IMG/VR virus record: IMGVR_UViG_3300033417_000026
Span: 1 to 41,517 of that record
Strand: one strand, 5' to 3'
Length of the DNA stretch: 41,517 nucleotides
DNA from: a virus
Lineage: Duplodnaviria > Caudoviricetes
Under the pieces are notes generated by a model, which ran no database searches, had not been told where the DNA came from, and worked only from the letters and a program-made list of their open reading frames with translations. This document shows, piece by piece, positions 1 to 35,166 of the stretch (positions are counted from its first letter, which is position 1; every line of letters starts with the position of its first letter). Position numbers and translations under genes: made by a program.

Positions 1-823
1 TGTCCAAATTATGAAATACCACAAAATTCGCCCTCTCGGTGAACCCGGCTTCTTTTAGTATCTCTACTCCTCCTCGGTAAAGAATTGCGTACTTTAATTC
101 ATCCGAAAGTCGGCAAATTAATTCCTCTTTGTCGCATCTCAAAGAGGCTTCTAATTTAATCCCGTAAGTCTTATACGATTCTCTTGCGCCGTCCCAACCC
201 TCTACATGAAATGAATCGCAACATAACTTTTGACAGTCGCACAATTCGCCCCGGAAGTCCTCATTTAGCCACGAGTTATTAGTCGAAACAGAAGTGTTGT
301 CCAAAAGAATGTAAACCCTCTTGTTGAACGTCTTGAAATTCAGCGTTATCTCAACTTCCTCTCCTGAGATTAAACTTATCGGGAAAACAGTCGGAGTCGT
401 AGTAAGCAGCCCCTCGTAAACTTTTATCTGAAAATCGCCTGTGGTTTCAGAATAAACCCTGACTTTTTCTAAGTACGTGAAAGTGAGAGGGTTTTCAAGG
501 CGGGTTAATTTAATACCTCTCTCTAAAGGTTCGGGCGAATTAAATAACGTTTGCCAATTCCCGAACTCAAACAAGCGTACAGCACTCTTATACCTGTGAT
601 TCGGAAGCACCATTAGCGCCTCGTCAACTAATAACGACGAAGCAAACGCGCTCTTTTCGCAGCTTAAATGTACAGCGTTGTTAAATTTGGAATCCGTGAA
701 ATCGGACACCTTACCTAAAGAAAGTCCCTCTAAATTTTCCCAATAAAGCCCAGACCCGGACGCCTCGAACTCCTCATCCGCGCAAAGAGATCTGAATTTG
801 ATGAAGTTGTCTAAGCATTTCAT
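1..823 (-). CDS. Virion structural protein (probable head-tail adaptor), 5' part, runs off the left edge
   Basis: Not in the ORF track. ATG at 823 overlaps the upstream TGA (ATGA). The frame is open to position 1: MKCLDNFIKFRSLCADEE...ILYRGGVEILKEAGFTERANFVVFHNLD. Function inferred only from its position after the capsid genes. Confidence 0.7.
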   Translation of the reverse strand, partial: MKCLDNFIKFRSLCADEEFEASGSGLYWENLEGLSLGKVSDFTDSKFNNAVHLSCEKSAFASSLLVDEALMVLPNHRYKSAVRLFEFGNWQTLFNSPEPLERGIKLTRLENPLTFTYLEKVRVYSETTGDFQIKVYEGLLTTTPTVFPISLISGEEVEITLNFKTFNKRVYILLDNTSVSTNNSWLNEDFRGELCDCQKLCCDSFHVEGWDGARESYKTYGIKLEASLRCDKEELICRLSDELKYAILYRGGVEILKEAGFTERANFVVFHNLD

Positions 824-1200
824 TCATTGGGAATTACTTTCCTTTTTCGTCCGCGCTTTTTGGGAACTACAACCTCGGCGACAACTTCTCCGTCAACCTC
901 TCCGTAATACTCGTCTTGAATTTCTGTTTGTTCGTCTGGTTCTGATTTTTCCTCAATAGGAGATTTGGATTCTCTCATTCTCAAAATCCCGCCTGAAAAT
1001 TCCAAAGATTGAATTATAGGAGATTTGGCTTCTAACTGCAAACGGTGCAGGTGATCTCCCACCACTATTTCCGCATCCACGTCCCGATCATACAACCCCT
1101 GCTTACCACGAATACCTATTTTAATTCGCTTCAAAGGCGCCCTGTCCTTTCCCACAACGGACAACGTAACCACCTTACCCGTTACGTGTTTCACCCGCAT
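820..1200 (-). CDS. Head-associated hypothetical protein with acidic linker and basic KKRGRKRK tail
   Basis: ORF track 820..1290; likely start ATG 1200 (MRVKHV) or 1227. Directly follows the capsid gene. Confidence 0.6.
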   Translation of the reverse strand: MRVKHVTGKVVTLSVVGKDRAPLKRIKIGIRGKQGLYDRDVDAEIVVGDHLHRLQLEAKSPIIQSLEFSGGILRMRESKSPIEEKSEPDEQTEIQDEYYGEVDGEVVAEVVVPKKRGRKRKVIPNE

Positions 1201-1225
1201 GGAGGCGCTCAGGATGAACGCCCCC
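1201..1225 (-). terminator. GC-rich stem-loop downstream of the major capsid gene (stabiliser/attenuator)
   Basis: Sense sequence GGGGGCGTTCA-TCC-TGAGCGCCTCC, an 11-bp stem including G-U pairs. No U-tract follows. Confidence 0.45.
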
Positions 1226-1268
1226 ATTGTCGGATGTAACAAACCCACTAAACCAGAATTTGAAATTA

Positions 1269-2366
1269 TCATGACAGAATTGATTCGCAAACCGTGTCGT
1301 CACTACATTCTCCGATGTAATGAAACACATCCTTCACGCCTTCAAGAGAATCGCCCGTCGCGAACAAGTCCGACGGATAACCCCATGCCGTCCACCTCTT
1401 TACAAGTTGAACGTTGTACACGGTATCGTAATCGTCATCTCCCGCTTCGCCGTCGTTACAATGCGCAAACTTCGCGTAGAAGTCCCACAGTAAATTCGGG
1501 AATTGATTGTCCGGCATCGTGATTTTGATATGATCCGGCGACCGGAACTCAAACTCGCCCCGATTGTGATTCGTGTCTACAAATTGAAGCGCACCCGGAA
1601 CCATTACCCAGATGTTATTCGCAACCCCCTCGACGGTGTCGATAGTCGTGTCCAGAATGTAGCCGTTTATTTGCGCAAGTTGACCGGCGTTGAATCCAGC
1701 ATCGTTGCAACAAGCTATTGACTTCATTATCGCGTACCGCCTCAACAAACCGGCCCCGATTTTCACCGGCATCATTCCGCCAAGTTCCGCGTCGGTCATG
1801 TCCTCTTCCATTACGATCTCTCCCAAAGGGTTGATCTTGTTCTCCGTAGTCTGGAAAAGAGGAATTACCTTAGGGCCTGCGACACCACCGGCGAAATTGC
1901 CAACAAATCCACCAGAGGAAATTAGCGTTACCAAATCTCGATTTAGAGCAGACTTCAATGACTGCATACCGGAATTGATAACCTCGGCAATGTGGTTACT
2001 TTTCCCTTCACAGAAGTCCCTCATTTGCTTATATTGAAAAGTAAACACCTCCGACCTCCGTTCCTGGTCGATTGCAAGACTTTGAAACTGATAACTCTTT
2101 GGAGTTACCGGATCGCAATAAGTCCCCGGCGTCGAGTCGTATGCCGAAAGAGGAGTCCTTTGCAAAAATCGGATTCGGGCGTCGTGCCTTTTACCGTCGC
2201 TTCCCGGATCAAGCTCTACGGAAAACCCCCCGGCGTTCCGGTTCTGATCCGAAAGTACCCAAGCCAGCGTACCCTGATTCGGTAGAATCGCAGTCGCCGA
2301 CCTGATTTGCTCGCTAAACAACTTTTGCGTTAGCGTGTAACAAAATTCATTCATGTCAACAGCCAT
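1269..2366 (-). CDS. Major capsid protein (probable HK97 fold)
   Basis: 365 aa, directly after a coiled-coil scaffold gene, with a dedicated leader and a downstream hairpin. Size and synteny fit. Confidence 0.75.
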   Translation of the reverse strand: MAVDMNEFCYTLTQKLFSEQIRSATAILPNQGTLAWVLSDQNRNAGGFSVELDPGSDGKRHDARIRFLQRTPLSAYDSTPGTYCDPVTPKSYQFQSLAIDQERRSEVFTFQYKQMRDFCEGKSNHIAEVINSGMQSLKSALNRDLVTLISSGGFVGNFAGGVAGPKVIPLFQTTENKINPLGEIVMEEDMTDAELGGMMPVKIGAGLLRRYAIMKSIACCNDAGFNAGQLAQINGYILDTTIDTVEGVANNIWVMVPGALQFVDTNHNRGEFEFRSPDHIKITMPDNQFPNLLWDFYAKFAHCNDGEAGDDDYDTVYNVQLVKRWTAWGYPSDLFATGDSLEGVKDVFHYIGECSDDTVCESILS

Positions 2367-2386
2367 AACTTTAGATTTAAGTTAAT

Positions 2387-2439
2387 TAAAAATGGGCATC
2401 CTCTTGGATCATACCCGTTATGGCAGGTGGGAAACCTCT
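2387..2439 (-). promoter_or_regulatory. Structured leader motif, copy A (upstream of major capsid)
   Basis: AGAGGUUUCCCACCUGCCAUAACGGGUAUGAUCCAAGAGGAUGCCCAUUUUU; matches copies B-D. Confidence 0.75.
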
Positions 2440-2479: not shown

Positions 2480-3325
2480 TCATTTTCTTTTCATTGCGCG
2501 TTCCGCTCGGTCTAATGCGTCTTGTTGTTCAACAGTAAGTTTTCTGGAAGGCGGGGTTCCGTTTCCCAATTGAGATGTTTCTGGAATTGTAATCGACCTC
2601 TGGAATTGTTGTGTGCTTCCTAACAAACCCTCCTTATCAATTATATCTTGCAGCGCCTCTGGAATTTTCAAAAATTCCGTCTTGCTTTTGGAAACTCTTT
2701 TCGCCGGGTTGCCCTTTTCACGAAGCTCGTACTCCGCGCCCTCTTTGGTTACGTTGTAATTCCCGTATAGTTTGTCCTTAATTAAGGAAAACGTCTGCTT
2801 TGGTGAAACCTTTAGATTTTTAAGGGTTCCTAATTGTTCAATGATGTGCTCATCCCGGAACCAATTACTCTTGAAAGTTTCAATCTCCTGCTCCTTAGCG
2901 AGTAGTTTGTCCTGAATATCCCTTTCCATTGCAGTCTTTGACGCCTCGACCGCGTGAAGTTGCTCCTGAATTTCGGAAACGTCGTCGTTTGTCCTGCCAG
3001 AAATTGCCGCGTTGTAATCTTTAATAAATTCGTCTAAGCTCCGCCCTTCGGCGTACTTAGAAGCATCAAGTTTAGCGGCCTTTCCTAACTTTCTTAATAG
3101 GGAATTGTAAACAAGCCCCTTAGCTTGCTTCTCAAGCTCAGGCTTCATTTTTGAAACCTCGGTAGTAACGTCCGGAAGTTCGTTTTTGACCTGCTCTCTG
3201 ATCGCGGTCATGTATGTTTCCGCGTCTTCCTCTGGTTTTAGGTCTTCGTCACCGTCAAGGTAAGCATCTAACTTCTCCGTTGGGAAGTCAAGATGTTTCA
3301 GAAGTTCTTTCAGCTTTTTGCTCAT
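2480..3325 (-). CDS. Capsid scaffolding protein
   Basis: 281 aa, highly charged and helical/coiled-coil, immediately upstream of the capsid gene. Confidence 0.65.
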   Translation of the reverse strand: MSKKLKELLKHLDFPTEKLDAYLDGDEDLKPEEDAETYMTAIREQVKNELPDVTTEVSKMKPELEKQAKGLVYNSLLRKLGKAAKLDASKYAEGRSLDEFIKDYNAAISGRTNDDVSEIQEQLHAVEASKTAMERDIQDKLLAKEQEIETFKSNWFRDEHIIEQLGTLKNLKVSPKQTFSLIKDKLYGNYNVTKEGAEYELREKGNPAKRVSKSKTEFLKIPEALQDIIDKEGLLGSTQQFQRSITIPETSQLGNGTPPSRKLTVEQQDALDRAERAMKRK

Positions 3326-3350: not shown

Positions 3351-3406
3351 TGAAAAGGTATAAGCATAACCTTCAATGCGTACTCTTGGTAGGCCCGCCG
3401 GCCTCA
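3351..3406 (-). promoter_or_regulatory. Structured leader motif, copy B (diverged; upstream of scaffold)
   Basis: UGAGGCCGGCGGGCCUACCAAGAGUACGCAUUGAAGGUUAUGCUUAUACCUUUUCA. Confidence 0.55.
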
Positions 3407-3412
3407 TTGTTG

Positions 3413-3757
3413 TCATTTAATCTTTCGTGGACGGCCCCTCTTAACAATGCCGACAATTTCTTTTTTTTTCTCTTGTACCGGCTCTGGAATCGGCTCCGAT
3501 CTTGTTAAGTTAACGTCAATCGGTTCGTCAGGTTCCCTTGTGTTATCAGGTACGGCCTCCCTATTAACCTTCATAAAAATCTTAGCCTTTGAACTCTTTG
3601 ACACCCTATTTGAAATATCCCGCTTCGCGCTCTCCTCAGGGCCACCGCTCAATACTTGAAACTCGTCTTTCCTGTGTTGTTTCCAATACCTGTACGAGTT
3701 TACAGATACCCGCGCGTTCTTTCCCGTACTCCTGTTTTTTAGGTAAATCCAAGCCAT
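3413..3757 (-). CDS. Basic hypothetical protein with C-terminal AT-hook-like KRGRPRK
   Basis: ATG 3757 (MAWIYLKN) just downstream of a consensus promoter. The ORF track start at 3775 lies inside that promoter. Confidence 0.65.
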   Translation of the reverse strand: MAWIYLKNRSTGKNARVSVNSYRYWKQHRKDEFQVLSGGPEESAKRDISNRVSKSSKAKIFMKVNREAVPDNTREPDEPIDVNLTRSEPIPEPVQEKKKEIVGIVKRGRPRKIK

Positions 3758-3772
3758 TAGTGCAAATTTAGG

Positions 3773-3804
3773 CAAATGTAAGTAAACTATTTGTATTTTC
3801 CAAA
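3773..3804 (-). promoter_or_regulatory. Bacteroidota primary-sigma promoter
   Basis: TTTG-N20-TACATTTG, matching the -33/-7 consensus TTTG...TAnnTTTG. Confidence 0.75.
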
Positions 3805-4648: not shown

Positions 4649-6326
4649 TTTCGTTTTTATCTTTATTCTCGTTCTTTTCACTTAATTCAGACAAGATCGA
4701 ATCAAACGCCGGCGCCTCTACGCTAAAGGCTTGCAATTCCTTTTTGAGTTTCTCACTTAAAACTTGCAAATCCGCTGCCATGAACGCCTCCGGCCCCATG
4801 TCTAGCAAGAGTTTGTTCGCCTCTGGGACTACGTGATTCACCCGCCGATATTCGCTCTTGTCCATCGTTCCATTAGCAAGAAACATATCCCTTTTTGAAG
4901 TTGGGTAAAGGTAGAGCGGCTCGGTAATTATAGCCAATTCCTCAATTCTCCTGGAAACTTCGTCGGTCGAAAACCTCCTTTTTATGTAGTCCAGGTAAAT
5001 ATTTAGAATTACACCATAAGAAAGATCGTTTGTAACGGCGTCCCTATACTCTGCCAACAGTTCCAGCTCGTCTTTAATCTTAAAAGAGATAGGCTTTATG
5101 ATCTTAATCTCGTCTGCCTTTCCGGGAAACTTCATCTTGAGCATCCAATTCAACGTCTTTCTCATTATGCCATCAAACCAATACCCCTGAAAGTTGAATA
5201 ACATTGAAAACTTGTCTTCCCGATCTTTGTCTTTAGCCGTGCCGCTTTGCGCCATTTCGATAAATCTCTGGTGTAATGCCTCTTGTGCCTTTACCAAGTC
5301 TTTGTCGCTGACTTCGCCCGAAAGAGATATTATAGCAGTATCCGGATATGCGAAGTCCAGCGCCTTCGTGTTCGTTTCGTGCCTCTCGTCTAAGATAATT
5401 CCTTTGTAAACGCTTGTTGGTACGACTTTCCCGGTTCCTTTACACGTCTTGCACTTCTCTACAAATTCGCCGCTATCGGTAAAGATTCGCCCATCTCTAC
5501 ACCCCTGCGCCGTGCATGGTAAGGCTCGCATAATCCTAATAGGATATGCGCTCGTAACCATAGCTCCCTTGTGAAGTTCTTTGTTTAATAGCGCGTGATT
5601 CGCATGAGATATAAATGGTGAAAAGTCCGAGTCGAACCACTTTTTTTCAGTGCCGTCAAAATCAACCTCTCCTGTGGGTATTCCTTTCAAAACAACGTAA
5701 GGCACTTCTCCTAAGCCATGCGTTGCGACCGAAATAAGCTCATATCTGTCTTTCGACACAGGAACGTAAATAAGATACTCTAAATCGGTGAGTATCTCAT
5801 AGGCATCCAGACTACTCGCGCCTACTTTTACTTTCTTTTTTGACCTCCAAATGAAAATATCGTCGCTAACGTATCTGATCTGTGATGAATGAACCAATTC
5901 CATGTCCGGGCCTGCCTCAAGCAGTTTCACCACAAGGCACCCGTTAGGGTCTTCCAACTTTCTCCAAAGTACGGTCTTGAAATAGAACTGGTTCCCGGAA
6001 AGGGAGTCGAACTGCTTGTCATTCCACCAGCTTAAGAAATAATCAGGTGCAACAAGCGACCAATTACTTTCGGATAAGGCTCTATACAAGTCCGTATATC
6101 CTCTATAATAAATCCCCTGCGTAATGGCCTGATAATTCCGCTCCCGGTACTGAACGACGTCGGCCTCCTCGTTAGGAAACGCATTTAGGAATAGGTCTTT
6201 AGGAACCGCCCCCCGTGAGTGAACGACAACCCTCCTAAAAACCTTATCCCATTTGAGTTTCAGCTCCGGCTCCCTCAAACCGGCAATGCCCTTTTTTAAG
6301 AGTCCAGCTACCTCGTCAAAGGTCAT
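4635..6326 (-). CDS. Portal protein with an inserted Cys4 zinc-finger-like segment
   Basis: About 563 aa from ATG 6326 (ATGA overlap). HGLGEVPYVVL resembles the SPP1-type portal H-x-l-G-x-V-P motif; later AQSGTAKDKDR. Lies upstream of the gp7-like gene. Confidence 0.75.
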   Translation of the reverse strand: MTFDEVAGLLKKGIAGLREPELKLKWDKVFRRVVVHSRGAVPKDLFLNAFPNEEADVVQYRERNYQAITQGIYYRGYTDLYRALSESNWSLVAPDYFLSWWNDKQFDSLSGNQFYFKTVLWRKLEDPNGCLVVKLLEAGPDMELVHSSQIRYVSDDIFIWRSKKKVKVGASSLDAYEILTDLEYLIYVPVSKDRYELISVATHGLGEVPYVVLKGIPTGEVDFDGTEKKWFDSDFSPFISHANHALLNKELHKGAMVTSAYPIRIMRALPCTAQGCRDGRIFTDSGEFVEKCKTCKGTGKVVPTSVYKGIILDERHETNTKALDFAYPDTAIISLSGEVSDKDLVKAQEALHQRFIEMAQSGTAKDKDREDKFSMLFNFQGYWFDGIMRKTLNWMLKMKFPGKADEIKIIKPISFKIKDELELLAEYRDAVTNDLSYGVILNIYLDYIKRRFSTDEVSRRIEELAIITEPLYLYPTSKRDMFLANGTMDKSEYRRVNHVVPEANKLLLDMGPEAFMAADLQVLSEKLKKELQAFSVEAPAFDSILSELSEKNENKDKNENGDF

Positions 6327-6886
6327 ATATCTAAAGCAGCAACTATCCCCGGAACGTGAACCGGCACGATGTGATCGAAGTCCTGGAAGGTAATCGTAGC
6401 CATCCAATGCGTCGTACCGTCCTGGTTGTTATCCTCCACAACCCGCCGGGCGTTGAATGAGAACCTTTTTACAAACCCGTAAATCCGCTCATCGCACGTA
6501 ACGAACCCTACCTGATACTTACGATAATTCGAGTTTATGTTATTGTAAAAGTCGTCCTGCGTGAATCCGAGGGTCAAGTCTTCCGCATTGAAGTCGGTAA
6601 TCTCCCAAGTGTGCGTCCTGGACATTATTTCATCCGGCACACACGAGTCGATCTTCTTCGCCCCCGCTTCCGCTTCTGGAATTGATCCTATAATATGCCC
6701 AAAAGGAGTGTGAAACAACTGACCGGCGTACTTCTTCGTCGCGTACTCCGTTGGGTCAGTTGGGTCAGTAAGGTCATCGGTGGCGCATAGCATGAAAATT
6801 AATCCCTGCCCTCCACCGGAAAGCACCACTCTATCGCAAATTGGGATAATAGCTGGCGGTGTAACTGCACATTGCAAGCAATCCAT
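6323..6886 (-). CDS. Probable major tail tube protein
   Basis: 187 aa, beta-rich, acidic, with its own promoter element and leader motif, as expected for a high-copy virion protein. Inference from size and context. Confidence 0.55.
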   Translation of the reverse strand: MDCLQCAVTPPAIIPICDRVVLSGGGQGLIFMLCATDDLTDPTDPTEYATKKYAGQLFHTPFGHIIGSIPEAEAGAKKIDSCVPDEIMSRTHTWEITDFNAEDLTLGFTQDDFYNNINSNYRKYQVGFVTCDERIYGFVKRFSFNARRVVEDNNQDGTTHWMATITFQDFDHIVPVHVPGIVAALDI

Positions 6887-6909
6887 AACTGTATGTTTAT
6901 TAATTAGTT

Positions 6910-6957
6910 AATGGCATCCCTAAAGGGATCATGCTCGTATTGCAGGTCGGCGCCTCA
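6910..6957 (-). promoter_or_regulatory. Structured leader motif, copy C (upstream of tail tube/portal operon)
   Basis: UGAGGCGCCGACCUGCAAUACGAGCAUGAUCCCUUUAGGGAUGCCAUU. Confidence 0.75.
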
Positions 6958-6961
6958 CGTA

Positions 6962-6969
6962 CAAAGATA
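6962..6969 (-). promoter_or_regulatory. Bacteroidota -7 promoter element
   Basis: TATCTTTG 5 nt upstream of the motif's GAGG. The -33 element is weak. Confidence 0.6.
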
Positions 6970-10269: not shown

Positions 10270-11981
10270 TATATCTTCCCGTTTATGGTCATCTCCTTTC
10301 GGTCAAAGTTAATCTGAATTTCGTCAATACTTCCCGACTTCTGGTTCCCAAAGAACATCAGTTTAACAGTCTTCGCCGGGTCTGCTGCTGAAAGAATGTC
10401 GCAACTGTACTTTATCCTCAACTTAAAATCCCTTGTTCTTAAAAGTCCTAATCTCGGATTTTCAATCTCCCAAAAGTTATGATATAAATTACCTGCTATG
10501 GTCATGTTTAACTTACTCCCTGCGTATTGAGCAGGCCCTAATCCCCGATCTTCACATACGTAAGGGTAATTGTAACCATTATTCCCTCCTAATCCCTGAC
10601 CCTTGTAATTTCTAACCTTCGCGTTATTAAGATTCACCCCGTCCCAAATGAGTAGTTTAGGCTGCATAGCCGTGCCATTATTAAGTAAAAGGTTCTTATC
10701 CGCTTCTTTCAGCGCACTTGTGAAAATAGGTATGATCTGAATAATCCCCGTACTTAAAACGTCCTTATCAATGTTGTCATCTCGGAATCTGGAATGACCG
10801 AACCCCGGACTGACAACCTTTTCGCCCTTTTGTCTTGACGTGTATGGATCGTTCCACTCCACTATTTCATCGTAGTACCCGTGAGCCTCGAAGCCAACCC
10901 AATCGACTGCATCCTGCGTGTAGGCGAACTCTAAAAAGGAAGGTGGCGTATCTCCTGAAAAGGAATAACATTGCTCAATTAAATCAGCCTCATCTAATTG
11001 AGAAGTGTCAACAAAAACATCAGGAAGGTCAAAGAAATCCCTTCGTTCAAAAATAAGAGTGGTTCCCTGTATTGTCCACTTCGCGTTGAAAACAGTTTTG
11101 AGGCTCTCCATTAATTGATCCCCCGTTACGTTCACCAAATTCAGATCAATTAATTTCACGTTCTGATCCCTGGTTCCCTTTTCAAATTGTGCATTGAAAT
11201 ACATCGTATCGTAGTAAGGACTTGATGAATCGTTAAGAATTGAACTCTTAAAGTCAAGTCCACAAATCGTACATACATTTTTAATGTAATTCCTAAGCAA
11301 CGGAGATGGGTGCTTCCTGTTGCACCCTATTATATTGTCGTCTAAATCTTTTAAGAATAATTTATAGCTCTTGAATAATTGGTTATTGTTAAGTCCCGGC
11401 GGACAGTTCACAAAAGGTATTGCACAAATGACTGTAATAATTACACTAATTATCAATACAATGGGTTGTAAAATAAAAAGAATTAGATAAATGTACCCCC
11501 CATAAATGTAAGCCAAGTATTGTAACGCGGAAGGGCGAAATTCTAAACAATAACCAACCCTCGGATGGCTTTGGCTTTTGAAATTCGTCTTTGCCGTATT
11601 CAGTTTAACCCTGTCGCTCTCGTACAGTAGCGTTGATCTGAAACAATCTAAAGGCTCCACTTCCTCAATTATCGTTACATCAACTTCGCACTCTCCTTCA
11701 CACCAATCAACTGTTTCTTGAGTTATTAATCCCTCAAATATCTCAAACCCGCAACAGTCGTCGAATAACCGCGCCCTGACGTTAAACTTAGGCGAAGTGA
11801 ATGGGTTGTTTAGAATCTTATTTTTGATTAATTCATACGCCGATCCTGTGAGTTTTAGAGTTCCCGAATAACTCTTAACCGGACTGCCTGACTCGTCTAA
11901 ATCTCTTAAAGTCAAAGTAACCCCGTTAAATCCAGATACTTCGGACTGCGGAATTTCTTTATTATCTAAAAATAAAATCAC
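10269..11981 (-). CDS. Tail tip / hub-like protein with an internal hydrophobic segment
   Basis: 570 aa directly after the tape measure. Ends in a hub-like strand pattern (GSIDEIQINFDRKEMTINGKI). Confidence 0.6.
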   Translation of the reverse strand: MILFLDNKEIPQSEVSGFNGVTLTLRDLDESGSPVKSYSGTLKLTGSAYELIKNKILNNPFTSPKFNVRARLFDDCCGFEIFEGLITQETVDWCEGECEVDVTIIEEVEPLDCFRSTLLYESDRVKLNTAKTNFKSQSHPRVGYCLEFRPSALQYLAYIYGGYIYLILFILQPIVLIISVIITVICAIPFVNCPPGLNNNQLFKSYKLFLKDLDDNIIGCNRKHPSPLLRNYIKNVCTICGLDFKSSILNDSSSPYYDTMYFNAQFEKGTRDQNVKLIDLNLVNVTGDQLMESLKTVFNAKWTIQGTTLIFERRDFFDLPDVFVDTSQLDEADLIEQCYSFSGDTPPSFLEFAYTQDAVDWVGFEAHGYYDEIVEWNDPYTSRQKGEKVVSPGFGHSRFRDDNIDKDVLSTGIIQIIPIFTSALKEADKNLLLNNGTAMQPKLLIWDGVNLNNAKVRNYKGQGLGGNNGYNYPYVCEDRGLGPAQYAGSKLNMTIAGNLYHNFWEIENPRLGLLRTRDFKLRIKYSCDILSAADPAKTVKLMFFGNQKSGSIDEIQINFDRKEMTINGKI

Positions 11982-14900
11982 CTTGCAAGTCTGTTTATCT
12001 TGTCTGCCTTTCCGATCCTGTTCTCAATTACCCTCACAAGCTCATCGCCTTTCACCATCCACTTGTGAGTGTTGATAGATATTTGTCCTGGTAAATCTCT
12101 GATAGCGTTCTCCACAGACTCCAATCTTCTCTCTACACCAGCCGAACTTACCGGCTCGTAATCTCGCATAAATTCGTTATATCCGATATATCTATCTGAT
12201 ACCCTGTTTAATACATCTGGTCGGGCCCTTCCTGATCTGATCGCTTGTAATGTCGGCTTAAATCTTCTGGTTTCTAAAGCAGTCATTACACTTTCCCCTC
12301 GACTTACTTTCGCGTGGATCGAATCCGAAGTTCCGGTTCCTCCCCCTTTAATGTCGATCTCTCCCTCTTTGAATGTAGGTATAGCCGCGCCCGCTAAGGC
12401 CCGCGCCTTCGCTAATCCCGCGACAAGAGCTATCAAAGTGGCCGCTATTGTTATCGGAGCGGCTATGCCACTTTGTGCCGCTGCCTTCGATATCGCCACC
12501 GCGAAATTAGCTACCAACTCAACTACCGCTAACGCCTGCTGCTGCCTTACAAATTTCTGCCTTTGTTCGTTTAACTTGTCTAATTTCTCCTGCTCTGCTT
12601 GTAAAAGTTCTGCGTTACCCCTATCCGCAAGCTCCCGAACCCTGTCCACGTTCTCTTTTTGCCGTCCTATCCTCCCTTCGACTTCGCTCAATGCCAAGCC
12701 AACAAGAAAGTTGGCCAACTCTAACCCCGCGCTTTTGATCTGCTCAAATTCAGCAATCCTATCCTCTACGCGCTGTTTATTTAACGCTTTAATCTTATCT
12801 ATCCTGTCTTGCTCTATTTTTTCTAAAGTCGCGGACAATAATCTCGCGTTATCAATTTCCTTACCTGCCAAAACACTCTGAACTAAAGCCTCCTCGTTGA
12901 TTAAATCAATCTTATCCTTATGGCTGAATCGCCTTAATTCTAACTCTGTGTTAATAGATTGTAAACGAATCCTTAGTAGCTCTAGCTGCTTTCTCTTTTC
13001 CTCATCTATTTCTCTTTGCGCGTTGTCGTCAACTAATTTGTTTACTGCATTTAATCTATTGACCGTTTCCGATATGATTAAGTCGTTTATTTGCCCTATC
13101 TGATTCGTGAGGCTTTCGATTCTTTCCTGATCCCCGGCGCTTGCCGCTGCTGCCAACTGCTCCTGAACAGAAGCTCTTTGTTTTTCAAGTTCCTCAATTA
13201 CCTTGTTTATCTCTGCTATTATCTCCGTTGTTTGCCTGGTTAATTCATCTTCAATTAAGGCAGTATTGGCTTGCAAAAGTCTGGATACCAATGCCTTCTC
13301 TTGGTTTAATATCGCCGTTGTCGTGTCCGTTATTATTTTCAGCCTTTCCGCTGCAAACTTTTTAGTTATCAATACCTTCGCCTGTTCTGCTGCTTCAAAT
13401 CCTTTTGTTCCTTTTGCAAATAGCTTCTGCTGCTCGTTAATCGCCGATATTTCCTCTTTTAATCTTGCATCAAGCCCCGCTAACGATCTTAGCTCCTGAT
13501 CCTTTATTAATTCGATATTCAAGTCCCTTATTACATTTGTCAATGACTGCACCGCCGCCCGTCTTTCTTCAATAGCCTTTAGCTCATCTTCTGCCTTCTC
13601 TTTTCCTTTTTCCGCATCTTCTGCTTTTTTCTTTGCTTCAAGGGCCTTTAGCTCATCTTGAATCGCTTTCCTACCTTCCTCGCGGGCTTTAGATCTTGCC
13701 CGTTCCGCTGAAACCGCATCTTTTGTAACCTCCTCATTTTTATCTTTATACAATCCCAATAGCTTAGCCGCTCCTTTTGCCGCATTACCCACAGCGTTAA
13801 ATGCCGTTTTAAGCGCTCCAAATTTGTTAATTATTTCCCCTGTGGTCTTAATTGCGGGAACGAATATCTTGTCCACAACGAACTTGAAAATAACCGAAAA
13901 TATCTTTAATGGAATCATTAAAAACTTCATCGCAAACCCTACGGCCTCCATTACCTTCGCAACTGTACTTGTTTTTTTCGCCCCCTCCTCTTGTACCTCA
14001 TTAAACGACCCAAACGCCTCCACTAAGTCGCCTATTGGAGCGAATATATCTCCCAAAATTTCGCCGTAAAACTTAAATGCGTCAATTACCGGGTCCGCGT
14101 TTCTCAAAACCGCGGTCAAGCCCTGAACTAATCCCCTTAAACCTTCGCTTACCCCACCACCTTCAAGGATAAGCCCGGTATAAGCGTTCTGTAATCTTTT
14201 TAAGTCGCCGTCTAAATTGTCCGTTTGAATAGACGCTTGCTCGTAAGCCGCATTTGTTCCAGTAATCCCCTTTGTTAATTCATCTAACCTCGATCTGGAT
14301 TTAATCAAAGTTTGTATTGCAAGCAGATTTTCTTCTCCAAAGGTTTTCGTTAAAAAAGTTATGTCGTTAACTTTTGGAGCAAGTAACTCAAGCTCCCCTC
14401 CCAATCCCACAAATTCGCGCCCGCCCTCTGCTGCCGCCTTTTGCATCTTTATTAAAACTCCCCGCATGTTTGTGCCTACAATGTTTGCCTGCGGAATTGA
14501 CTCGCCTAACAATTCAACGGCTGCCACAGACTGCTCGACACTTAACCCCGCGCTTTCTGCGACACCGCCAAATTTCGCTAACGCCTCGCTTACAAACGGT
14601 ATTTCCTTCGCGCCTAACTTTGACGCCGCCGCCATAACATTAATCACCCGTGCCGATTCCGAGGCCGGTAATCTGATTTGATTTAATGTTTCAGCTAAGA
14701 CTTGTCCAGATTGAGCTAAGTCTAATCCGCTCGCTTCTGATAAGGTTACCGCCGCTTTCGTGACTTCTGCCAATGCGTCCCGGTTTGCTAATAATTCCGG
14801 CTTCGCCGATGCTATCAACTTAAAAGCAGTTAATGCCTGCTGTGCGCTTGTTGTCGTAGTTACGCCTATCGCCTTTGCCTGTTCTTTGAAAAATTCCAGG

Positions 14901-15421
14901 TCTTCGCCTGTGGCGCCTGTTATGGCTGAAAGTTCTGAAAGTCCCTTTTCAAAGTTTTTCAGAATAACTATCCCGCCCCTTATTTCTCTGAAAAGTAACC
15001 CCGCTGCTGCTGTTGCTGTTAAAAAAGGAACCGCTGACTTTAACACATTCCCTAACCCGGCCATTGTCTTTGAAGTCTGGCCCGTAACCTTGCCTAATTG
15101 CGCTTGTGTTATTTGTAACTGTCTTGACGCGTTAGCGTAAGCCCGGCTGCCAATAGTAGCTGAATTTACGGCCTTATTTAATAAGTCCTGTTTGGCCCGT
15201 AACCCGTTAACCGTGTTTGTTTCCTGCCTTAAAGCGCCGTTCAGTTTGGCCTCTGCCTCGGTAAGCCGTTGGTTCGCCGCCGTCCATTCTGCTGTACCCT
15301 TTTTAGCCTTCCCGACCTCGGCCTGATACTTAGATACGTCCGATATTAACGCCTCCACCGCGCCCTGAGCGGACTTCGTGTCGAAATCTAATACGTAAAT
15401 CTGTTTGATTAATTCAGCCAT
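11978..15421 (-). CDS. Tail tape measure protein (TP901-family core)
   Basis: 1147 aa, Ala/Leu/Lys helical. Contains FEKGLSELSAITGATGEDL and AYEQASIQTDNLDGDLKRL, typical of the TP901 core, plus the C-terminal GTGTSDSIHAKVSRGESVM motif. Confidence 0.92.
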   Translation of the reverse strand: MAELIKQIYVLDFDTKSAQGAVEALISDVSKYQAEVGKAKKGTAEWTAANQRLTEAEAKLNGALRQETNTVNGLRAKQDLLNKAVNSATIGSRAYANASRQLQITQAQLGKVTGQTSKTMAGLGNVLKSAVPFLTATAAAGLLFREIRGGIVILKNFEKGLSELSAITGATGEDLEFFKEQAKAIGVTTTTSAQQALTAFKLIASAKPELLANRDALAEVTKAAVTLSEASGLDLAQSGQVLAETLNQIRLPASESARVINVMAAASKLGAKEIPFVSEALAKFGGVAESAGLSVEQSVAAVELLGESIPQANIVGTNMRGVLIKMQKAAAEGGREFVGLGGELELLAPKVNDITFLTKTFGEENLLAIQTLIKSRSRLDELTKGITGTNAAYEQASIQTDNLDGDLKRLQNAYTGLILEGGGVSEGLRGLVQGLTAVLRNADPVIDAFKFYGEILGDIFAPIGDLVEAFGSFNEVQEEGAKKTSTVAKVMEAVGFAMKFLMIPLKIFSVIFKFVVDKIFVPAIKTTGEIINKFGALKTAFNAVGNAAKGAAKLLGLYKDKNEEVTKDAVSAERARSKAREEGRKAIQDELKALEAKKKAEDAEKGKEKAEDELKAIEERRAAVQSLTNVIRDLNIELIKDQELRSLAGLDARLKEEISAINEQQKLFAKGTKGFEAAEQAKVLITKKFAAERLKIITDTTTAILNQEKALVSRLLQANTALIEDELTRQTTEIIAEINKVIEELEKQRASVQEQLAAAASAGDQERIESLTNQIGQINDLIISETVNRLNAVNKLVDDNAQREIDEEKRKQLELLRIRLQSINTELELRRFSHKDKIDLINEEALVQSVLAGKEIDNARLLSATLEKIEQDRIDKIKALNKQRVEDRIAEFEQIKSAGLELANFLVGLALSEVEGRIGRQKENVDRVRELADRGNAELLQAEQEKLDKLNEQRQKFVRQQQALAVVELVANFAVAISKAAAQSGIAAPITIAATLIALVAGLAKARALAGAAIPTFKEGEIDIKGGGTGTSDSIHAKVSRGESVMTALETRRFKPTLQAIRSGRARPDVLNRVSDRYIGYNEFMRDYEPVSSAGVERRLESVENAIRDLPGQISINTHKWMVKGDELVRVIENRIGKADKINRLAR

Positions 15422-15438
15422 GAGGATTAATTTAACTC

Positions 15439-15487
15439 AAAACACAGGTTAAAACCTCATGCGCTGATAGGCAGGTGCGCGGCCTCT
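15439..15487 (-). promoter_or_regulatory. Structured leader motif, copy D (upstream of tape measure)
   Basis: AGAGGCCGCGCACCUGCCUAUCAGCGCAUGAGGUUUUAACCUGUGUUUU. Confidence 0.75.
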
Positions 15488-15501: not shown

Positions 15502-15509
15502 CAAATATA
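15502..15509 (-). promoter_or_regulatory. Bacteroidota -7 promoter element
   Basis: TATATTTG upstream of motif copy D. No clear -33 element. Confidence 0.5.
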
Positions 15510-18396: not shown

Positions 18397-19220
18397 AGCG
18401 ATATTGGCACACAGTCGGCCCACAAGGCCCCGGCGTGGAGTTTGATCTTCTCTGCGTCAAAGATAATACTTCCTAACAAATCTATTTTCTCTGATAAATT
18501 ACTCATTCTCTTTATTCGATGGTTTGGCCGGTTCTTTCCGTAAAAGCCGGCATGATAACACAACGGCTCCTTAGGGAAAAGGTTCATCATTCCCGTTGAC
18601 CAGCCGATTCGCCTGATTAACCCGTCCTGTTCACAGAAGTTGTCATTTAACGGAGTGTCGAACTTGCTCATATACCCTTTTGGATCATTGTAATACGATC
18701 TGTTTACGTGAGGCAAAATTAGGTTTGTTAGAACATCTGCTGTAAACGAAACTCCTATACTTTGATAATGACTCGCCGTAATAAGGAAGGCGTTCCCGGA
18801 AAAGTCGCTCCGCATATCCTCGTTTGGGTTATGATCCACCGAGGCTATCCGGCAAAACGTTAACATTTCACAGTAAGCGGCGTGCCACTTAAAATACTGT
18901 TTGTGGATCATTACGTCCTCCTCAATTAACGTTACCCTTTGCGAGTGCATCTCGCCTAACTTGGCCCCGATCCTGTACGCCTCTAAGATATTCCGTGACT
19001 GCTTCGCCAACGGACTTGCCTGGATTCTGGTATCTGGTCTTAAAATTTCACCGTGAAAGTCTTCCAGAAAACTATTCGCCATCTTTAGCCCGTCCGCGAA
19101 AGCTCCAATATCAGCGGCGAAAATGTAGTAATTCTCCTTTGCCTCGTCTGCTTTTTTGATCTGCCATAAGCACCAATAAAGCATTTCCGGTCTGCGGTAA
19201 ATTGGGATAATTACAATCAT
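18393..19220 (-). CDS. GT-A fold glycosyltransferase
   Basis: N-terminal IVIIPIYRRPEML and a DxD-equivalent TLIEEDV. Confidence 0.75.
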   Translation of the reverse strand: MIVIIPIYRRPEMLYWCLWQIKKADEAKENYYIFAADIGAFADGLKMANSFLEDFHGEILRPDTRIQASPLAKQSRNILEAYRIGAKLGEMHSQRVTLIEEDVMIHKQYFKWHAAYCEMLTFCRIASVDHNPNEDMRSDFSGNAFLITASHYQSIGVSFTADVLTNLILPHVNRSYYNDPKGYMSKFDTPLNDNFCEQDGLIRRIGWSTGMMNLFPKEPLCYHAGFYGKNRPNHRIKRMSNLSEKIDLLGSIIFDAEKIKLHAGALWADCVPISL

Positions 19221-19909
19221 TTGTAAAGTGTTGGAATATCTTTATTACAAGAAAAATGCCACGTGTCTGCTACGTTGTATCTTTGTTTTAATCTATATCC
19301 GATTCTTTCAAGAGTCATTTTTAACTGCCTCCAAGTTGGTAGGTGCATACACTCGACAAAAATCTCTGGCTTATCTCTTTTGAAAACCTTCATTCCTCCC
19401 TTAATTACCTCAAGCTCGTGGCCCTCGACGTCGATCTTAACCAAAGATAATGAAATTTCTTCAAAATAATGGTCTATTGTTGTAACTAATATTACCCCCT
19501 GATTTGTTGAAATTGTAGTCCCTCCTGTTGAAACCTGATCCCCAAGTGGGGGTATGTTAACCAAGCACTTCCCCCGTTCTGATCCCATTGCCATTGGCTC
19601 TAAGGTTGTGTTCGTTACGCCGTTTAAGTCCATATTTTTTTTGTACCATTGCCGGTTTTCCTCTGTTGGATCAAAAGCAAAAATCCTTTCAGCAGGGCAA
19701 TACTTACCAAAAAATACCGAGTGATGACCGTTATGGCAACCTATATCGGCGTAATTGCCTGAAATATTTAATCGTTCAATGGCATCCAGCATCCAATGTT
19801 CATAGAAAGCTCCGTATCTTATTTCCTCGCTTGCAAGGTGGTGATCGTTACAATAAAGGCTAACCCCCTTATTTAACCGGACAAAGTGTATTAAAGCGTA
19901 TGGCCGCAT
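19217..19909 (-). CDS. FkbM-family SAM-dependent methyltransferase
   Basis: DIGCHNGHHS, FAFDP and LVKIDVEGHELEVIKG motifs. Confidence 0.92.
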   Translation of the reverse strand: MRPYALIHFVRLNKGVSLYCNDHHLASEEIRYGAFYEHWMLDAIERLNISGNYADIGCHNGHHSVFFGKYCPAERIFAFDPTEENRQWYKKNMDLNGVTNTTLEPMAMGSERGKCLVNIPPLGDQVSTGGTTISTNQGVILVTTIDHYFEEISLSLVKIDVEGHELEVIKGGMKVFKRDKPEIFVECMHLPTWRQLKMTLERIGYRLKQRYNVADTWHFSCNKDIPTLYK

Positions 19910-19913
19910 GGTT

Positions 19914-20804
19914 CTATATTAACTCTTTTTTTAGCCTGGTTTCAAAATCGGTCTTATCTCTTAAAAAAGCCGCCCGCGCCGCCGGGCCCGTGTCTAATTT
20001 CTTCGCGGCCAATACCGCCTTACTTATATCCTCTGATCTAACTTCAAACTTGTTAGATAATCCCATAGACTCGCCGATGTGCCCCCTTACTCTTAATCCT
20101 GTTGCGTCTGTTATTAGTTCGCTCATGGGCGCGTAATCAGACGTAATTATAACAGCCCCGACACTTCGGGCTTCGTTTATGTAATGCCCGAATCCCTCTG
20201 CTTCCGAAGGGCAAATATGAAACTTGTGGGAGTTCTGTAAAGCTCTTAATTCCTCATCTGCTAAATACTCGTAAATATACGTAATGTTTTTTGATTCCAC
20301 AAGCGACCTGTAATCCGCTCTCCCATGACTGACAATCGTCAAAGGCTCTGAATAATTGAACGCATCAATAACCGCCTCTGTGTTTTTTTGTCTTGACTTC
20401 CCGATCAAATGGAGCCACTTCTCATCCTTATCCTGTTCGGCTATATGTCTATCCTGCGAAGTGAATCCCGTGTAGATAGTATTAAATCTTAGCCCGGAAA
20501 AGATATTAAACGCGTGCAATGACTTCGCTAATATAGTAAATCTTTTGTTGTACTTTAACCAATAAGAATAAGTCCATTCCGGGTTCGGGAACCAATAATT
20601 TTTCTTGAATAAATGCCACCAACTGATTTTAGGAATTTCAAAGTGTATTCCAATATCGCACCTTTTAGGAAGGTTGTGGTAAACAACAAAATCTTTATTT
20701 AACGCGGCGTGAACTACGTCGGCGTCAGTCTTTAGTCCCACTCCGTTATTTGGGTAAAGTAAATTGACGCTTGGATAAATCAAATTAACTGTTTTTGTTG
20801 GCAT
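19914..20804 (-). CDS. GT-B (GT4 / group 1) glycosyltransferase
   Basis: CPSEAEGFGHYINEARSVG (EX7E motif), and GKSRQKNT. Confidence 0.9.
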   Translation of the reverse strand: MPTKTVNLIYPSVNLLYPNNGVGLKTDADVVHAALNKDFVVYHNLPKRCDIGIHFEIPKISWWHLFKKNYWFPNPEWTYSYWLKYNKRFTILAKSLHAFNIFSGLRFNTIYTGFTSQDRHIAEQDKDEKWLHLIGKSRQKNTEAVIDAFNYSEPLTIVSHGRADYRSLVESKNITYIYEYLADEELRALQNSHKFHICPSEAEGFGHYINEARSVGAVIITSDYAPMSELITDATGLRVRGHIGESMGLSNKFEVRSEDISKAVLAAKKLDTGPAARAAFLRDKTDFETRLKKELI

Positions 20805-21129
20805 TATCAAATCTTTGAATTGTTCTGATTAAATACTCAAGACTATCGGATCGTAAACTGTAAAAAACTTCCCGCCCGTGCTTTTGCCCGTGCACCCATC
20901 TTAACGCCCGAAGCCTTTTGAGGATATGGCTCATTACCGTTTTATTTATCCCTAATATTCCGGCCAACTCCCCCGGCGTCACGGGTTGGCGCATCGAAAT
21001 AAGGTGCATCGTGTCCGCGACGTGCCTCTTTTGTCCTTCTGATAGCTCTTTCAGCACCCCCGGCGTGCGGGCGAATAGGGCGTGGTAGTTATCGGATAGT
21101 GTGTCGGAGTGGTTCATTGTTAACTCCAA
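20785..21129 (-). CDS. ArsR-like winged helix-turn-helix protein
   Basis: TPGELAGILGINKTVMSHILKRLR...GREVFYSL. The start may be 21117. Confidence 0.8.
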   Translation of the reverse strand: MELTMNHSDTLSDNYHALFARTPGVLKELSEGQKRHVADTMHLISMRQPVTPGELAGILGINKTVMSHILKRLRALRWVHGQKHGREVFYSLRSDSLEYLIRTIQRFDNANKNS

Positions 21130-27011: not shown

Positions 27012-27902
27012 TTAATTATTTACAGGAGCTTCTTTTAGTAGTTCGATCAGCTTGTCTGCCTGTTTTTTCCATGCGGCTTCGGCGGCGTCCTCGGCGGCCC
27101 CGGCGGCGTCCGCGGCGTCCTCGGCGGCCCAGGCGGCCCAGGCGGCCCGTGCGGCGGCCTCTGCGGCCTCTGCGGCGGCGGCGGCGGCCCTGGCGGCCCT
27201 GGCGGCTTCGGCGGCGTCCTCGGCGGCCCCGGCGGCGTCCGCGGCGTCCTCGGCGGCCCAGGCGGCCCGTGCGGCGGCCTCTGCGGCCTCTGCGGCGGCG
27301 GCGGCGGCCCTGGCGGCCCTGGCGGCTTCGGCGGCGGCCCCGGCGGCGTCCGCGGCGTCCGCGGCGTCCTCGGCGGCCCAGGCGGCCCGTGCGGCGGCCT
27401 CTGCGGCCTCTGCGGCGGCGGCGGCGGCCCTGGCGGCCCTGGCGGCGTCCGCGGCGTCCTCGGCGGCCCATTCCTGATCTGTTACTTCCTCCCCGTTTAA
27501 TATTCGTTCGTACAAATCGATTACCGTTTCGATAGCCTTTTTACCGACTTCATCCGAATATTCCGATACCGATTCCAGCAGCCATATTGCATATTGCGGC
27601 CAAATCTTTTCCAAATCTGCCCCGACCGGGATCGCGTTTAAGAAACGTTCCGGCCACGACTTCGCCAGATCGACCGGTAACCCTTCGAAAATCGAATCTT
27701 CCAGGTACGCCAATCGAACTGGAATGCCCAGCTCTGTTTCGTATGCATCGTGTTTGGAAGAGTGAAGCGTGCAGCCAACTGCGCACTCTTTTCCGTCCTC
27801 CCAGTATCCAAATCCCTGTAAAATTTCGTCCGCTTCCCGGTGCGCCCGGACGCGGGCGAGGTACTTTTCTTTAATCGAAGAATCATTATGATACGCTTTC
27901 AT
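27012..27902 (-). CDS. Conserved phage protein with a long Ala-rich repeat insert
   Basis: Globular N-terminus (CAVGC, ELGIP...LEDSIFEGLP...WPERFL), AAx repeats, then C-terminal QADKLIELLKEAP. Confidence 0.85.
   Translation of the reverse strand: MKAYHNDSSIKEKYLARVRAHREADEILQGFGYWEDGKECAVGCTLHSSKHDAYETELGIPVRLAYLEDSIFEGLPVDLAKSWPERFLNAIPVGADLEKIWPQYAIWLLESVSEYSDEVGKKAIETVIDLYERILNGEEVTDQEWAAEDAADAARAARAAAAAAEAAEAAARAAWAAEDAADAADAAGAAAEAARAARAAAAAAEAAEAAARAAWAAEDAADAAGAAEDAAEAARAARAAAAAAEAAEAAARAAWAAWAAEDAADAAGAAEDAAEAAWKKQADKLIELLKEAPVNN
27073..27470. repeat. GC-rich nested tandem repeat (9-nt units in three ~120-nt blocks)
   Basis: 27241-27300 is identical to 27361-27420 and near-identical to 27121-27180. 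Confidence 0.95.
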
Positions 27903-34348: not shown

Positions 34349-34535
34349 GTCTATCAAGTTTGTAAATAACAACTTCAAGAGATGCCTTTTTCAAGTCCTT
34401 TTCAATCGCAATTAACCGCCGCTCCTGTTCGATCTGTTTCCCATACGCCGCAGATGCCGCCCATATCAGCGTAATCATTGGTATAGCAAACATCGCCACT
34501 ATCCAGCGTTTAATATTTATTGACTCGTTCACCAA
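34281..34535 (-). CDS. Single-TM plus coiled-coil holin-like protein
   Basis: WIVAMFAIPMITLIWAASAAYG followed by a coiled coil; upstream of the endolysin. Confidence 0.55.
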   Translation of the reverse strand: MVNESINIKRWIVAMFAIPMITLIWAASAAYGKQIEQERRLIAIEKDLKKASLEVVIYKLDRLERNLDNIMSVLLLPESERSGR

Positions 34536-35166
34536 TTAAGTGTTTTAATTTAGCCTTACGGAACGTAAACGACTTTGCAGGACAAAACATATACTCGTAA
34601 AGAACTTCATTTATCTGAAATTCCGTTTTTGCCTTACCCACCATTCTATTCGTCCAATGAATATCCTCATACCAATTAATCCTCGGAAAAGGCACAAGGT
34701 CAGCGACTGATTTTTTCCATAACATTAAATGATTTGGAGGGCGTTCATAGTGAGAACTCTTTGTTTTATATCCCTTAAATTTAATTGAGAACTTCATTTC
34801 CCGGTCAATTTCTCCGTTAAGGTATCTCATCACCGGGAAACAAACAACGTCAACGCCGGTTTGTGCGCCTTTAATTAATTCTTGAGTGTAGTCTTGAGAT
34901 ATTTTATCGTCGTCGTCAAGATAGGCTACATATTCACCAGATGCAAGCCACCTTAAATAATTCCTTTTTTCTCCCAAAATTACCTTACGGTCATCGTAGG
35001 CCAAAATAATCTCTACATCTCCAGACCTAAATCCGTAAAATACCATTCCTTTTTCCGCGAAAGTATCTTCCGAACCCTGACCTATTTGACTCCTCAAAGA
35101 ATCCAAAAGAGAGTCGCACTCACTTTCTCTTTGCGGAATTGTCGGAATTAAAAGCGAAATCTTCAT
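34510..35166 (-). CDS. GT2-family glycosyltransferase
   Basis: ISLLIPT, GEKRN, GEYVAYLDDDD and YEDIHW motifs. Confidence 0.9.
   Translation of the reverse strand: MKISLLIPTIPQRESECDSLLDSLRSQIGQGSEDTFAEKGMVFYGFRSGDVEIILAYDDRKVILGEKRNYLRWLASGEYVAYLDDDDKISQDYTQELIKGAQTGVDVVCFPVMRYLNGEIDREMKFSIKFKGYKTKSSHYERPPNHLMLWKKSVADLVPFPRINWYEDIHWTNRMVGKAKTEFQINEVLYEYMFCPAKSFTFRKAKLKHLIGERVNKY

Follow-up and report, generated by a model that had tools for sequence, protein, structure and literature searches.

The window (the whole stretch of DNA analyzed here, a virus record of 41.5 kb) carries tailed-phage genes on its minus strand. The major capsid protein (365 aa; 1269–2366, minus strand) has an HK97-type fold, with a model pLDDT of 86.9 and Foldseek matches to phage capsids (best E = 1.4e-7), and the tape measure protein (11978–15421, minus strand) matches PHROG 28 (E = 3e-33). 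A 281-aa protein (2480–3325, minus strand) is called scaffold-like from its place preceding the capsid gene; a family search found no match for it, and it is 23% identical (E = 0.021) to the protein in the equivalent position of the relative L128. The assignment of a 187-aa protein (6323–6886, minus strand) as tail-tube-like is weak: The model has a pLDDT of 58, and the top rows of its search are mostly tail tubes, none of them at E ≤ 0.001.

On either side of the scaffold and capsid genes lies a small ORF (3413–3757 and 820–1290, minus strand); both end in basic KRGR(P)RK-like tails, which we take to be AT-hook-like. Family searches found no match for them (the first is the 114-aa ORF, 3757–3413, that precedes copy B below), and relatives have a small ORF ahead of the scaffold gene that is like them in size and N-terminal words. 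Elsewhere in the window we note a small gene present as two tandem copies of 114 and 111 aa (∼80% alike in DNA over 22244–22327/22600–22683 and 22508–22577/22855–22924), a long 9/9/12-base repeat within a 296-aa ORF without a family match (27012–27500), and one methyltransferase and two glycosyltransferase genes with PHROG matches (19217–20810 and 34510–35166, minus strand).

Bacteroidota-type -7 promoter boxes precede several late genes of the window, and Shine-Dalgarno (SD) words are absent; the box consensus and its position follow PMC6847099. From these two features we infer a Bacteroidota host. The call rests on them because no relative was found in the phage GenBank set or among the genome contigs. 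In viral contigs, capsid searches with close alignments gave zero matches, and motif scans gave at least 120 loci (in 15 of 64 parts) and 10 more in a second scan, all coding or chance matches.

Four copies of one motif lie on the minus strand, starting at 2438 (A), 3405 (B), 6956 (C), and 15486 (D), each at most 90 nt from the start of a virion gene: capsid, scaffold-like, tail-tube-like, and tape measure, respectively. Copy A occupies 2438–2388, as an earlier note on this DNA had placed it, between the scaffold-like ORF (stop at 2480) and the capsid ORF, and is followed by an A/U-rich spacer preceding the capsid start codon (2367–2393, minus strand; 80% A+U in the final 30 nt, with no SD-like word). 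Two -7 boxes before the 114-aa ORF (3763–3780, minus strand) likely mark the start of a transcript that includes both B and A, and copy B starts 8 nt past the stop of that ORF. A -7 box at 6962–6969 (minus strand) puts the beginning of copy C at predicted transcript position +2, and with the box at 15502–15509 (minus strand) the copy D motif would begin at about +12.

A pattern built post hoc from the copies occurs four times in the window, against a mean of 0.195 (maximum 2) over 200 shuffles. Nested folding of the copies is no better than that of shuffled sequences (z-scores -0.77 to +0.16). Rfam searches with the window, the region around copy A, five short loci, and six longer loci found no relevant match, giving only chance rows and two tRNAs, and no riboswitch family of Rfam 15, including preQ1-I, was matched. 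We regard the motif as a real, conserved, and uncatalogued RNA element. A reading as a DNA site was dropped because the gap between the stem-1 strands ranges from 4 to 11 nt. Likenesses to HDV-like, hammerhead, fluoride, ZTP, and guanidine-II RNAs were weighed by eye and discarded.

Each copy very probably consists of two small H-type pseudoknot units, as judged from complementarities in its sequence. In copy A, predicted unit 1 (2414–2437, minus strand) has a first stem AGGU (2437–2434)/ACCU (2428–2425), a second stem between the loop bases CCC (2431–2429) and GGG (2416–2414), and a loop 3 of 8 nt. Unit 2 has the stem AUCC/GGAU (2398–2409, minus strand), which is the 3′ hairpin of the earlier note; its own second stem, which would join the loop AAGA to the U-run, stacks only weakly (-2.4 kcal/mol). 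Second stems for unit 2 are plausible in the other three copies. Copy B (3354–3405, minus strand) has AGGCC/GGCCU and GCG/CGC in unit 1 and GCAU/AUGC and GAAGGU/ACCUUU in unit 2, the two units overlapping by 2 nt. Copy C (6904–6956, minus strand) has AGG/CCU and a bulged GCCG/CG(A)GC, followed by AUCC/GGAU and UUAG/CUAA, and copy D (15431–15486, minus strand) has AGG/CCU and GCGC/GCGC, followed by AGG/CCU and UUUAA/UUAAA. The unit 1 loop/partner pairs differ in all four copies, and the loops' own partners rank first among the 24 permutations (55 of 5000 shuffles). Taken singly, no copy is significant: Among 50 shuffles, 4 are as good as copy A, 11 as B, 50 as C, and 5 as D. The second stem in the window has only three to four pairs (three in A) and is bulged in C.

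The earlier note had set two nested pairings of copy A against each other, in the manner of a terminator/antiterminator switch. One of them stands: GGGU (2416–2413)/GCCC (2397–2394) across an AUG bulge has a nested-ensemble probability of 0.80 and is the optimum, with A-U5 next to it. The other, UGCC/GGUA, can be drawn yet is 3.6–4.4 kcal/mol worse (-7.4 or -8.2 vs. -11.8) and is absent among pairs above 5%; folding of the growing transcript predicts ACCUG/CGGGU as its nested alternative. On its own, ACCUGCC is not above chance, being found five times against 3.1 expected (24 of 100 shuffles) and exact in A and D only. The choice described for copy C is predicted in both its GCA/UGC pairings (downstream 0.36–0.48, upstream 0.16–0.19) but lacks a U-tract, and the AGCGC/GUGUU pairing of copy D reaches about 0.3 but is followed by two U, so its U-tract is unusable. 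Copy B has no downstream partner of the GGGU/GCCC kind, and the UAC/GUA covariation claimed for it is out of register: The homologous position reads GCA versus UAC, a mismatch, and the GUA of B precedes the second-stem strand, whereas the GCA/GUA of A, C, and D sits at that strand's end.

Terminator prediction lists none of the four copies, and no U-tract follows the hairpins of B, C, and D. Because these three have no usable U-tract, the switch is not common to all copies. What remains of the two-state attenuator in the window is confined to A, where a terminator-like hairpin and a competing structure exclude each other; the competitor is the predicted pseudoknot (loop CCC/GGG) in place of UGCC/GGUA. 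The suggested start-site switch through the bulged AUG finds no support, because this AUG is missing from copy B and from the nearest relative; the bulge corresponds to the linker AU plus the opening G of unit 2 (in copy D, unit 2 reads GAGG again). Two UGC(C) partners exist because the unit is duplicated, the first stem of each unit ending in U and then GC. The broader claims of the note, an RNA element in late-gene leaders of a Bacteroidota-type phage and short helices that would need a stabilizing ligand, are upheld.

Among relatives for which DNA is available, L127 is the nearest (capsid 49% identical); its two units share the GAGG..CCUGC words of the window, and neither the helices of the earlier note nor the AUG are kept in L127 or L128. 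In more distant relatives, the loop of each small hairpin finds its complement a few A-rich bases further downstream, as in an H-type pseudoknot. With 61 further capsid loci added (L200, which is without a leader, was dropped), the set comprised 67 leaders, four of them the window copies, and was dereplicated to 44, of which 40 are from relatives. Two to four knots precede the capsid gene in relatives, with at least two in 35 of the 40 leaders. Of these 40 capsid leaders, 31 score better than 48 or more of their 50 shuffles, and the knot count is 103 against 42. Among the 103 knots, 54 have a loop 1 of 1 nt and 63 a loop 2 of 0 nt, and loop 3 is 57% A; the letters of loop 1 and stem 2 vary, leaving no fixed ligand-pocket bases. 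The antisense strand, with 97 knots against 103, is unsuitable as a control because the reverse complement of a knot is itself a knot.

When hairpins are picked by the first stem alone, a second stem is found in 35 of 59, against a mean of 10.4 and a maximum of 19 over 500 partner swaps, and 30 different second stems occur among them. In the first knot of 20 aligned related leaders, double changes occur in three of four and two of three pairs of the two stems, which are 97%–100% paired; the second knot, mis-registered by the aligner, is 62.5% paired. Eleven new capsid leaders were reached via the tube gene and seven are significant (two with a mis-called start), against two of 20 in a comparison set of tube leaders directly behind the capsid gene. 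Comparison thus supports the predicted knot fold and, in two subclades, a covarying U-tailed hairpin.

In the window, a U-tailed hairpin occurs in copy A only, where GGGU/GCCC extends the unit 2 stem into a terminator-like hairpin with an A-U5 tail (2388–2416, minus strand; -7.6 kcal/mol, 3-nt bulge). With five U (A-U5-AA), it misses the -12 kcal/mol cut-off and is not called by terminator prediction. Its 5′ arm includes the 3′ strand of the knot's second stem (GGG), so that knot and hairpin are mutually exclusive. The knot state has a rough energy, from a crude penalty model, of -3.1 plus -3.4 kcal/mol (for the free second hairpin), against -11.8 kcal/mol for the hairpin state, which fits a default OFF state. 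The copies, their positions, their complementarities, and the mutual exclusion in A can all be read directly from the DNA.

We surveyed 48 distinct capsid leaders of relatives for such hairpins: 37 of the 40 (excluding the most distant, L130, L202, and L204) and the 11 new ones. In 25 of them there is a hairpin (-13.5 to -28.5 kcal/mol) whose U-rich tail ends 48–66 nt upstream of the start codon; the tails have five to eight U of eight, many only five or six. By a strict rule, the 5′ arm of the hairpin coincides with the 3′ strand of stem 1 plus loop 3 of the last knot in 20 of the 48, and in the other five of the 25 an overlap with a similar third element is seen by eye. Five shuffle sets gave two to three hairpins and zero overlaps. 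The strand shared with the hairpin thus belongs to stem 2 in copy A, as against stem 1 in relatives.

The hairpin arms covary in 16 leaders hand-picked from the 25 (0 of 2000 swaps), with A-U 11 times and U-A five times at pair 5 and C-G 12 times and G-C four times at pair 1, as they do in 18 of 18 regions from a single clade (0 of 1000 swaps); relatedness remains in both controls. A quick tree without L130 needs only three changes to accommodate the 25 hairpin leaders; they form two subclades at a distance from the window, and the window itself groups with L127 only. By the rule, 23 of the 48 leaders have no such hairpin, including both nearest relatives: L127 has a U-rich run after the first knot with hairpins of only -3.3/-4.0 kcal/mol, and L128 has none. 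The attenuator idea is supported in relatives, most clearly in the distant ones, and only weakly in the window. In the capsid leaders of L151, L168, and L173 (alignment A11, columns 128–160), the GGG-U-run strand of the hairpin also appears by eye to be complementary to a C/A-rich stretch downstream, and this pairing would, after read-through, release the last knot to refold.

A -7-like box lies 2–14 nt upstream of a knot in 12 of the 48 leaders (in L182 likely by chance), and in six of the 12 a 5-nt gap places the stem at +2, like in copy C. In L224, L236, and L245 the order is promoter box, knots, U-tailed hairpin, and capsid gene. The tube-like-gene knots of L147, L149, and L150 begin right behind a tRNA-Met gene, and tRNA processing would give them a new 5′ end. 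This tRNA-Met(CAT) stands alone (L147:4248–4319, L149:3945–4021, and L150:4158–4232), with a -7-like box ahead of it in L149 and L150. A knot precedes the tape-measure-like gene of one relative and another its tube-like gene, in the GAGG style of its capsid copies. Leaders with one knot among relatives' scaffold (four of 17) and tube genes (seven of 18) are not clearly above the background (42 of 122). Two further knots lie upstream of a 167-aa gene outside the capsid, tube, and tape measure set (L138:11631, minus strand, record G004).

In the promoter-proximal clade (L129:9839, L146:6988, L147:9818, L148:9818, L149:9821, L150:9818, and L196:9821), the capsid ORF has a hydrophobic N-terminal extension of 45–80 residues, like a membrane anchor or signal peptide. 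C-terminal extensions of 100–350 residues are present in close capsid relatives (L127, 120–1508; P0002–P0005, P0021, and P0029), and the window capsid is without one.

Small pseudoknot riboswitches, including strand-invasion ON switches, have a knot and a terminator that are mutually exclusive. Those of the preQ1-I type likewise have an H-type knot, an A-rich loop 3, and knot/terminator exclusion; in contrast, the element described here has no Rfam match and no conserved ligand pocket, and its units are in tandem before structural genes. The gene 32 leader of T4, T2, and RB69 is likewise a compact H-type knot in a phage leader, tens of bases upstream of the start codon and followed by an unstructured A/U stretch (PMC3014915). 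That system comprises one knot before an SSB gene under autogenous translational repression, and in 2010 was possibly the sole viral autoregulatory example of a pseudoknot (PMC3014915), whereas here we find tandem knots before virion genes, at four sites in one genome and, in part of the relatives, with an overlapping terminator-like hairpin. The HK022 put RNA is likewise a two-unit nascent RNA of ∼60 nt near phage transcript starts and tied to termination control, but its fold is a double hairpin, it binds RNA polymerase, and its effect reaches distant terminators (PMC8632103); the units here are predicted pseudoknots, occur also internally, and may overlap the terminator. Judged as a double hairpin near a transcript start, the position fits copies C and D and not A and B, and the predicted fold is a knot. 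Among the papers listed in searches on pseudoknots before capsid genes, tandem phage-leader knots, and knot/terminator late-gene control, none concerns this element, and none shows a knot-gated attenuator RNA of this type for Bacteroidota phages. Five candidates lie upstream of another capsid family in PMC10690425; the motif words have no match in the supplements searched, and an unannotated candidate may exist there. A word search of PMC5737381 gave no occurrence of "capsid."

Since the copy A knot overlaps a terminator-like hairpin, the cassette in front of the capsid gene may well act as a protein-stabilized on-switch for late gene expression. During transcription the knot would form first and be complete before the 3′ arm of the hairpin exists; the more stable hairpin would then invade the knot by default (OFF), unless a putative partner, a late-made phage protein or a transcription complex, stabilizes the knot and allows more read-through into the capsid gene (ON). 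That a ligand-stabilized cassette gates the terminator wherever one overlaps seems to us to have somewhat less than an even chance of being right, and for copy A itself we suggest conditional termination only tentatively. In copies B, C, and D and in about half of the relatives, which have no overlapping terminator, the bound cassette might raise output through 5′-end protection or help with initiation. That four virion genes in a single genome share the cassette speaks for a common trans-acting partner. A fuller version, which we consider doubtful, is that the knot arrays bind a late phage protein (perhaps the scaffold or capsid) or RNA polymerase, and that the last knot blocks the terminator and so couples capsid transcription to the stage of infection in Bacteroidota-type phages.

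Several other explanations share parts of this evidence. The knots may be a static element that protects the mRNA 5′ end and/or recruits bS1 for SD-free initiation, with the hairpin of copy A a by-product or a fixed partial terminator. We think this rather unlikely, although it would account for the -7-like boxes just before a knot in 12 of 48 leaders, the +2 position of copy C, the knots behind tRNA-Met, the A/U-rich spacer that always comes next, and the three window copies without a terminator, and although bS1 binds pseudoknots with high affinity and Bacteroidota lack SD pairing (PMC10931766). It leaves unexplained why, in 20 of 48 leaders, the last knot would be destroyed by a U-tailed hairpin with covarying arms, just as a plain stabilizer does not explain a U-tailed hairpin just behind the promoter in L224, L236, and L245. 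The free variation of the stems, with 30 different second stems, also makes it improbable that nascent knots bind RNA polymerase directly and confer resistance to downstream terminators with no phage protein. Such a mode is how the ∼65-nt double hairpin of HK022 put works (PMC8632103), and a two-unit element of 50–60 nt at transcript starts (C and D) ahead of long operons recalls it, but copies A and B are internal and an overlapping hairpin would wreck part of the element.

The geometry of T4 gene 32, a knot upstream and, from there to the start codon, an A/U stretch without structure (PMC3014915), would suit an operator in which the knot nucleates the binding of surplus structural or ssDNA-binding protein, so that the A/U-rich initiation region becomes covered and translation is repressed; here, however, the downstream genes encode four different virion proteins and no SSB, and the terminators would go unexplained, so we find an operator of this kind quite improbable. 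The switch of the earlier note, with GGUA or GCA shared between a UGC(C) hairpin upstream and a terminator downstream, or else with the bulged AUG toggling start sites, is very improbable. Both pairings are drawable in A, C, and D and populated in C, and the AUG opens short ORFs (out-of-frame or stopped) in those three copies, but the upstream pairing is below 5% in A; B, C, and D have no U-tail; the covariation in B is out of register; and both nearest relatives lack helix and AUG. A metabolite riboswitch with a small pseudoknot aptamer is scarcely credible: The knot-versus-terminator layout is like that of small pseudoknot riboswitches, but Rfam gives no match, the letters of loop 1 and stem 2 differ from unit to unit, and the genes are structural. 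A preQ1 pseudoknot also features in PMC8632103.

If, as we tentatively propose, a stabilized knot cassette gates an overlapping terminator, then a direct readout, a short terminated RNA versus read-through, is offered by the covarying terminator at whose formation the last knot is lost in one branch of the relatives. Such a cassette would represent RNA-based control of late genes in phages of a phylum that has its own promoters and SD-free initiation and would provide a compact switch part.
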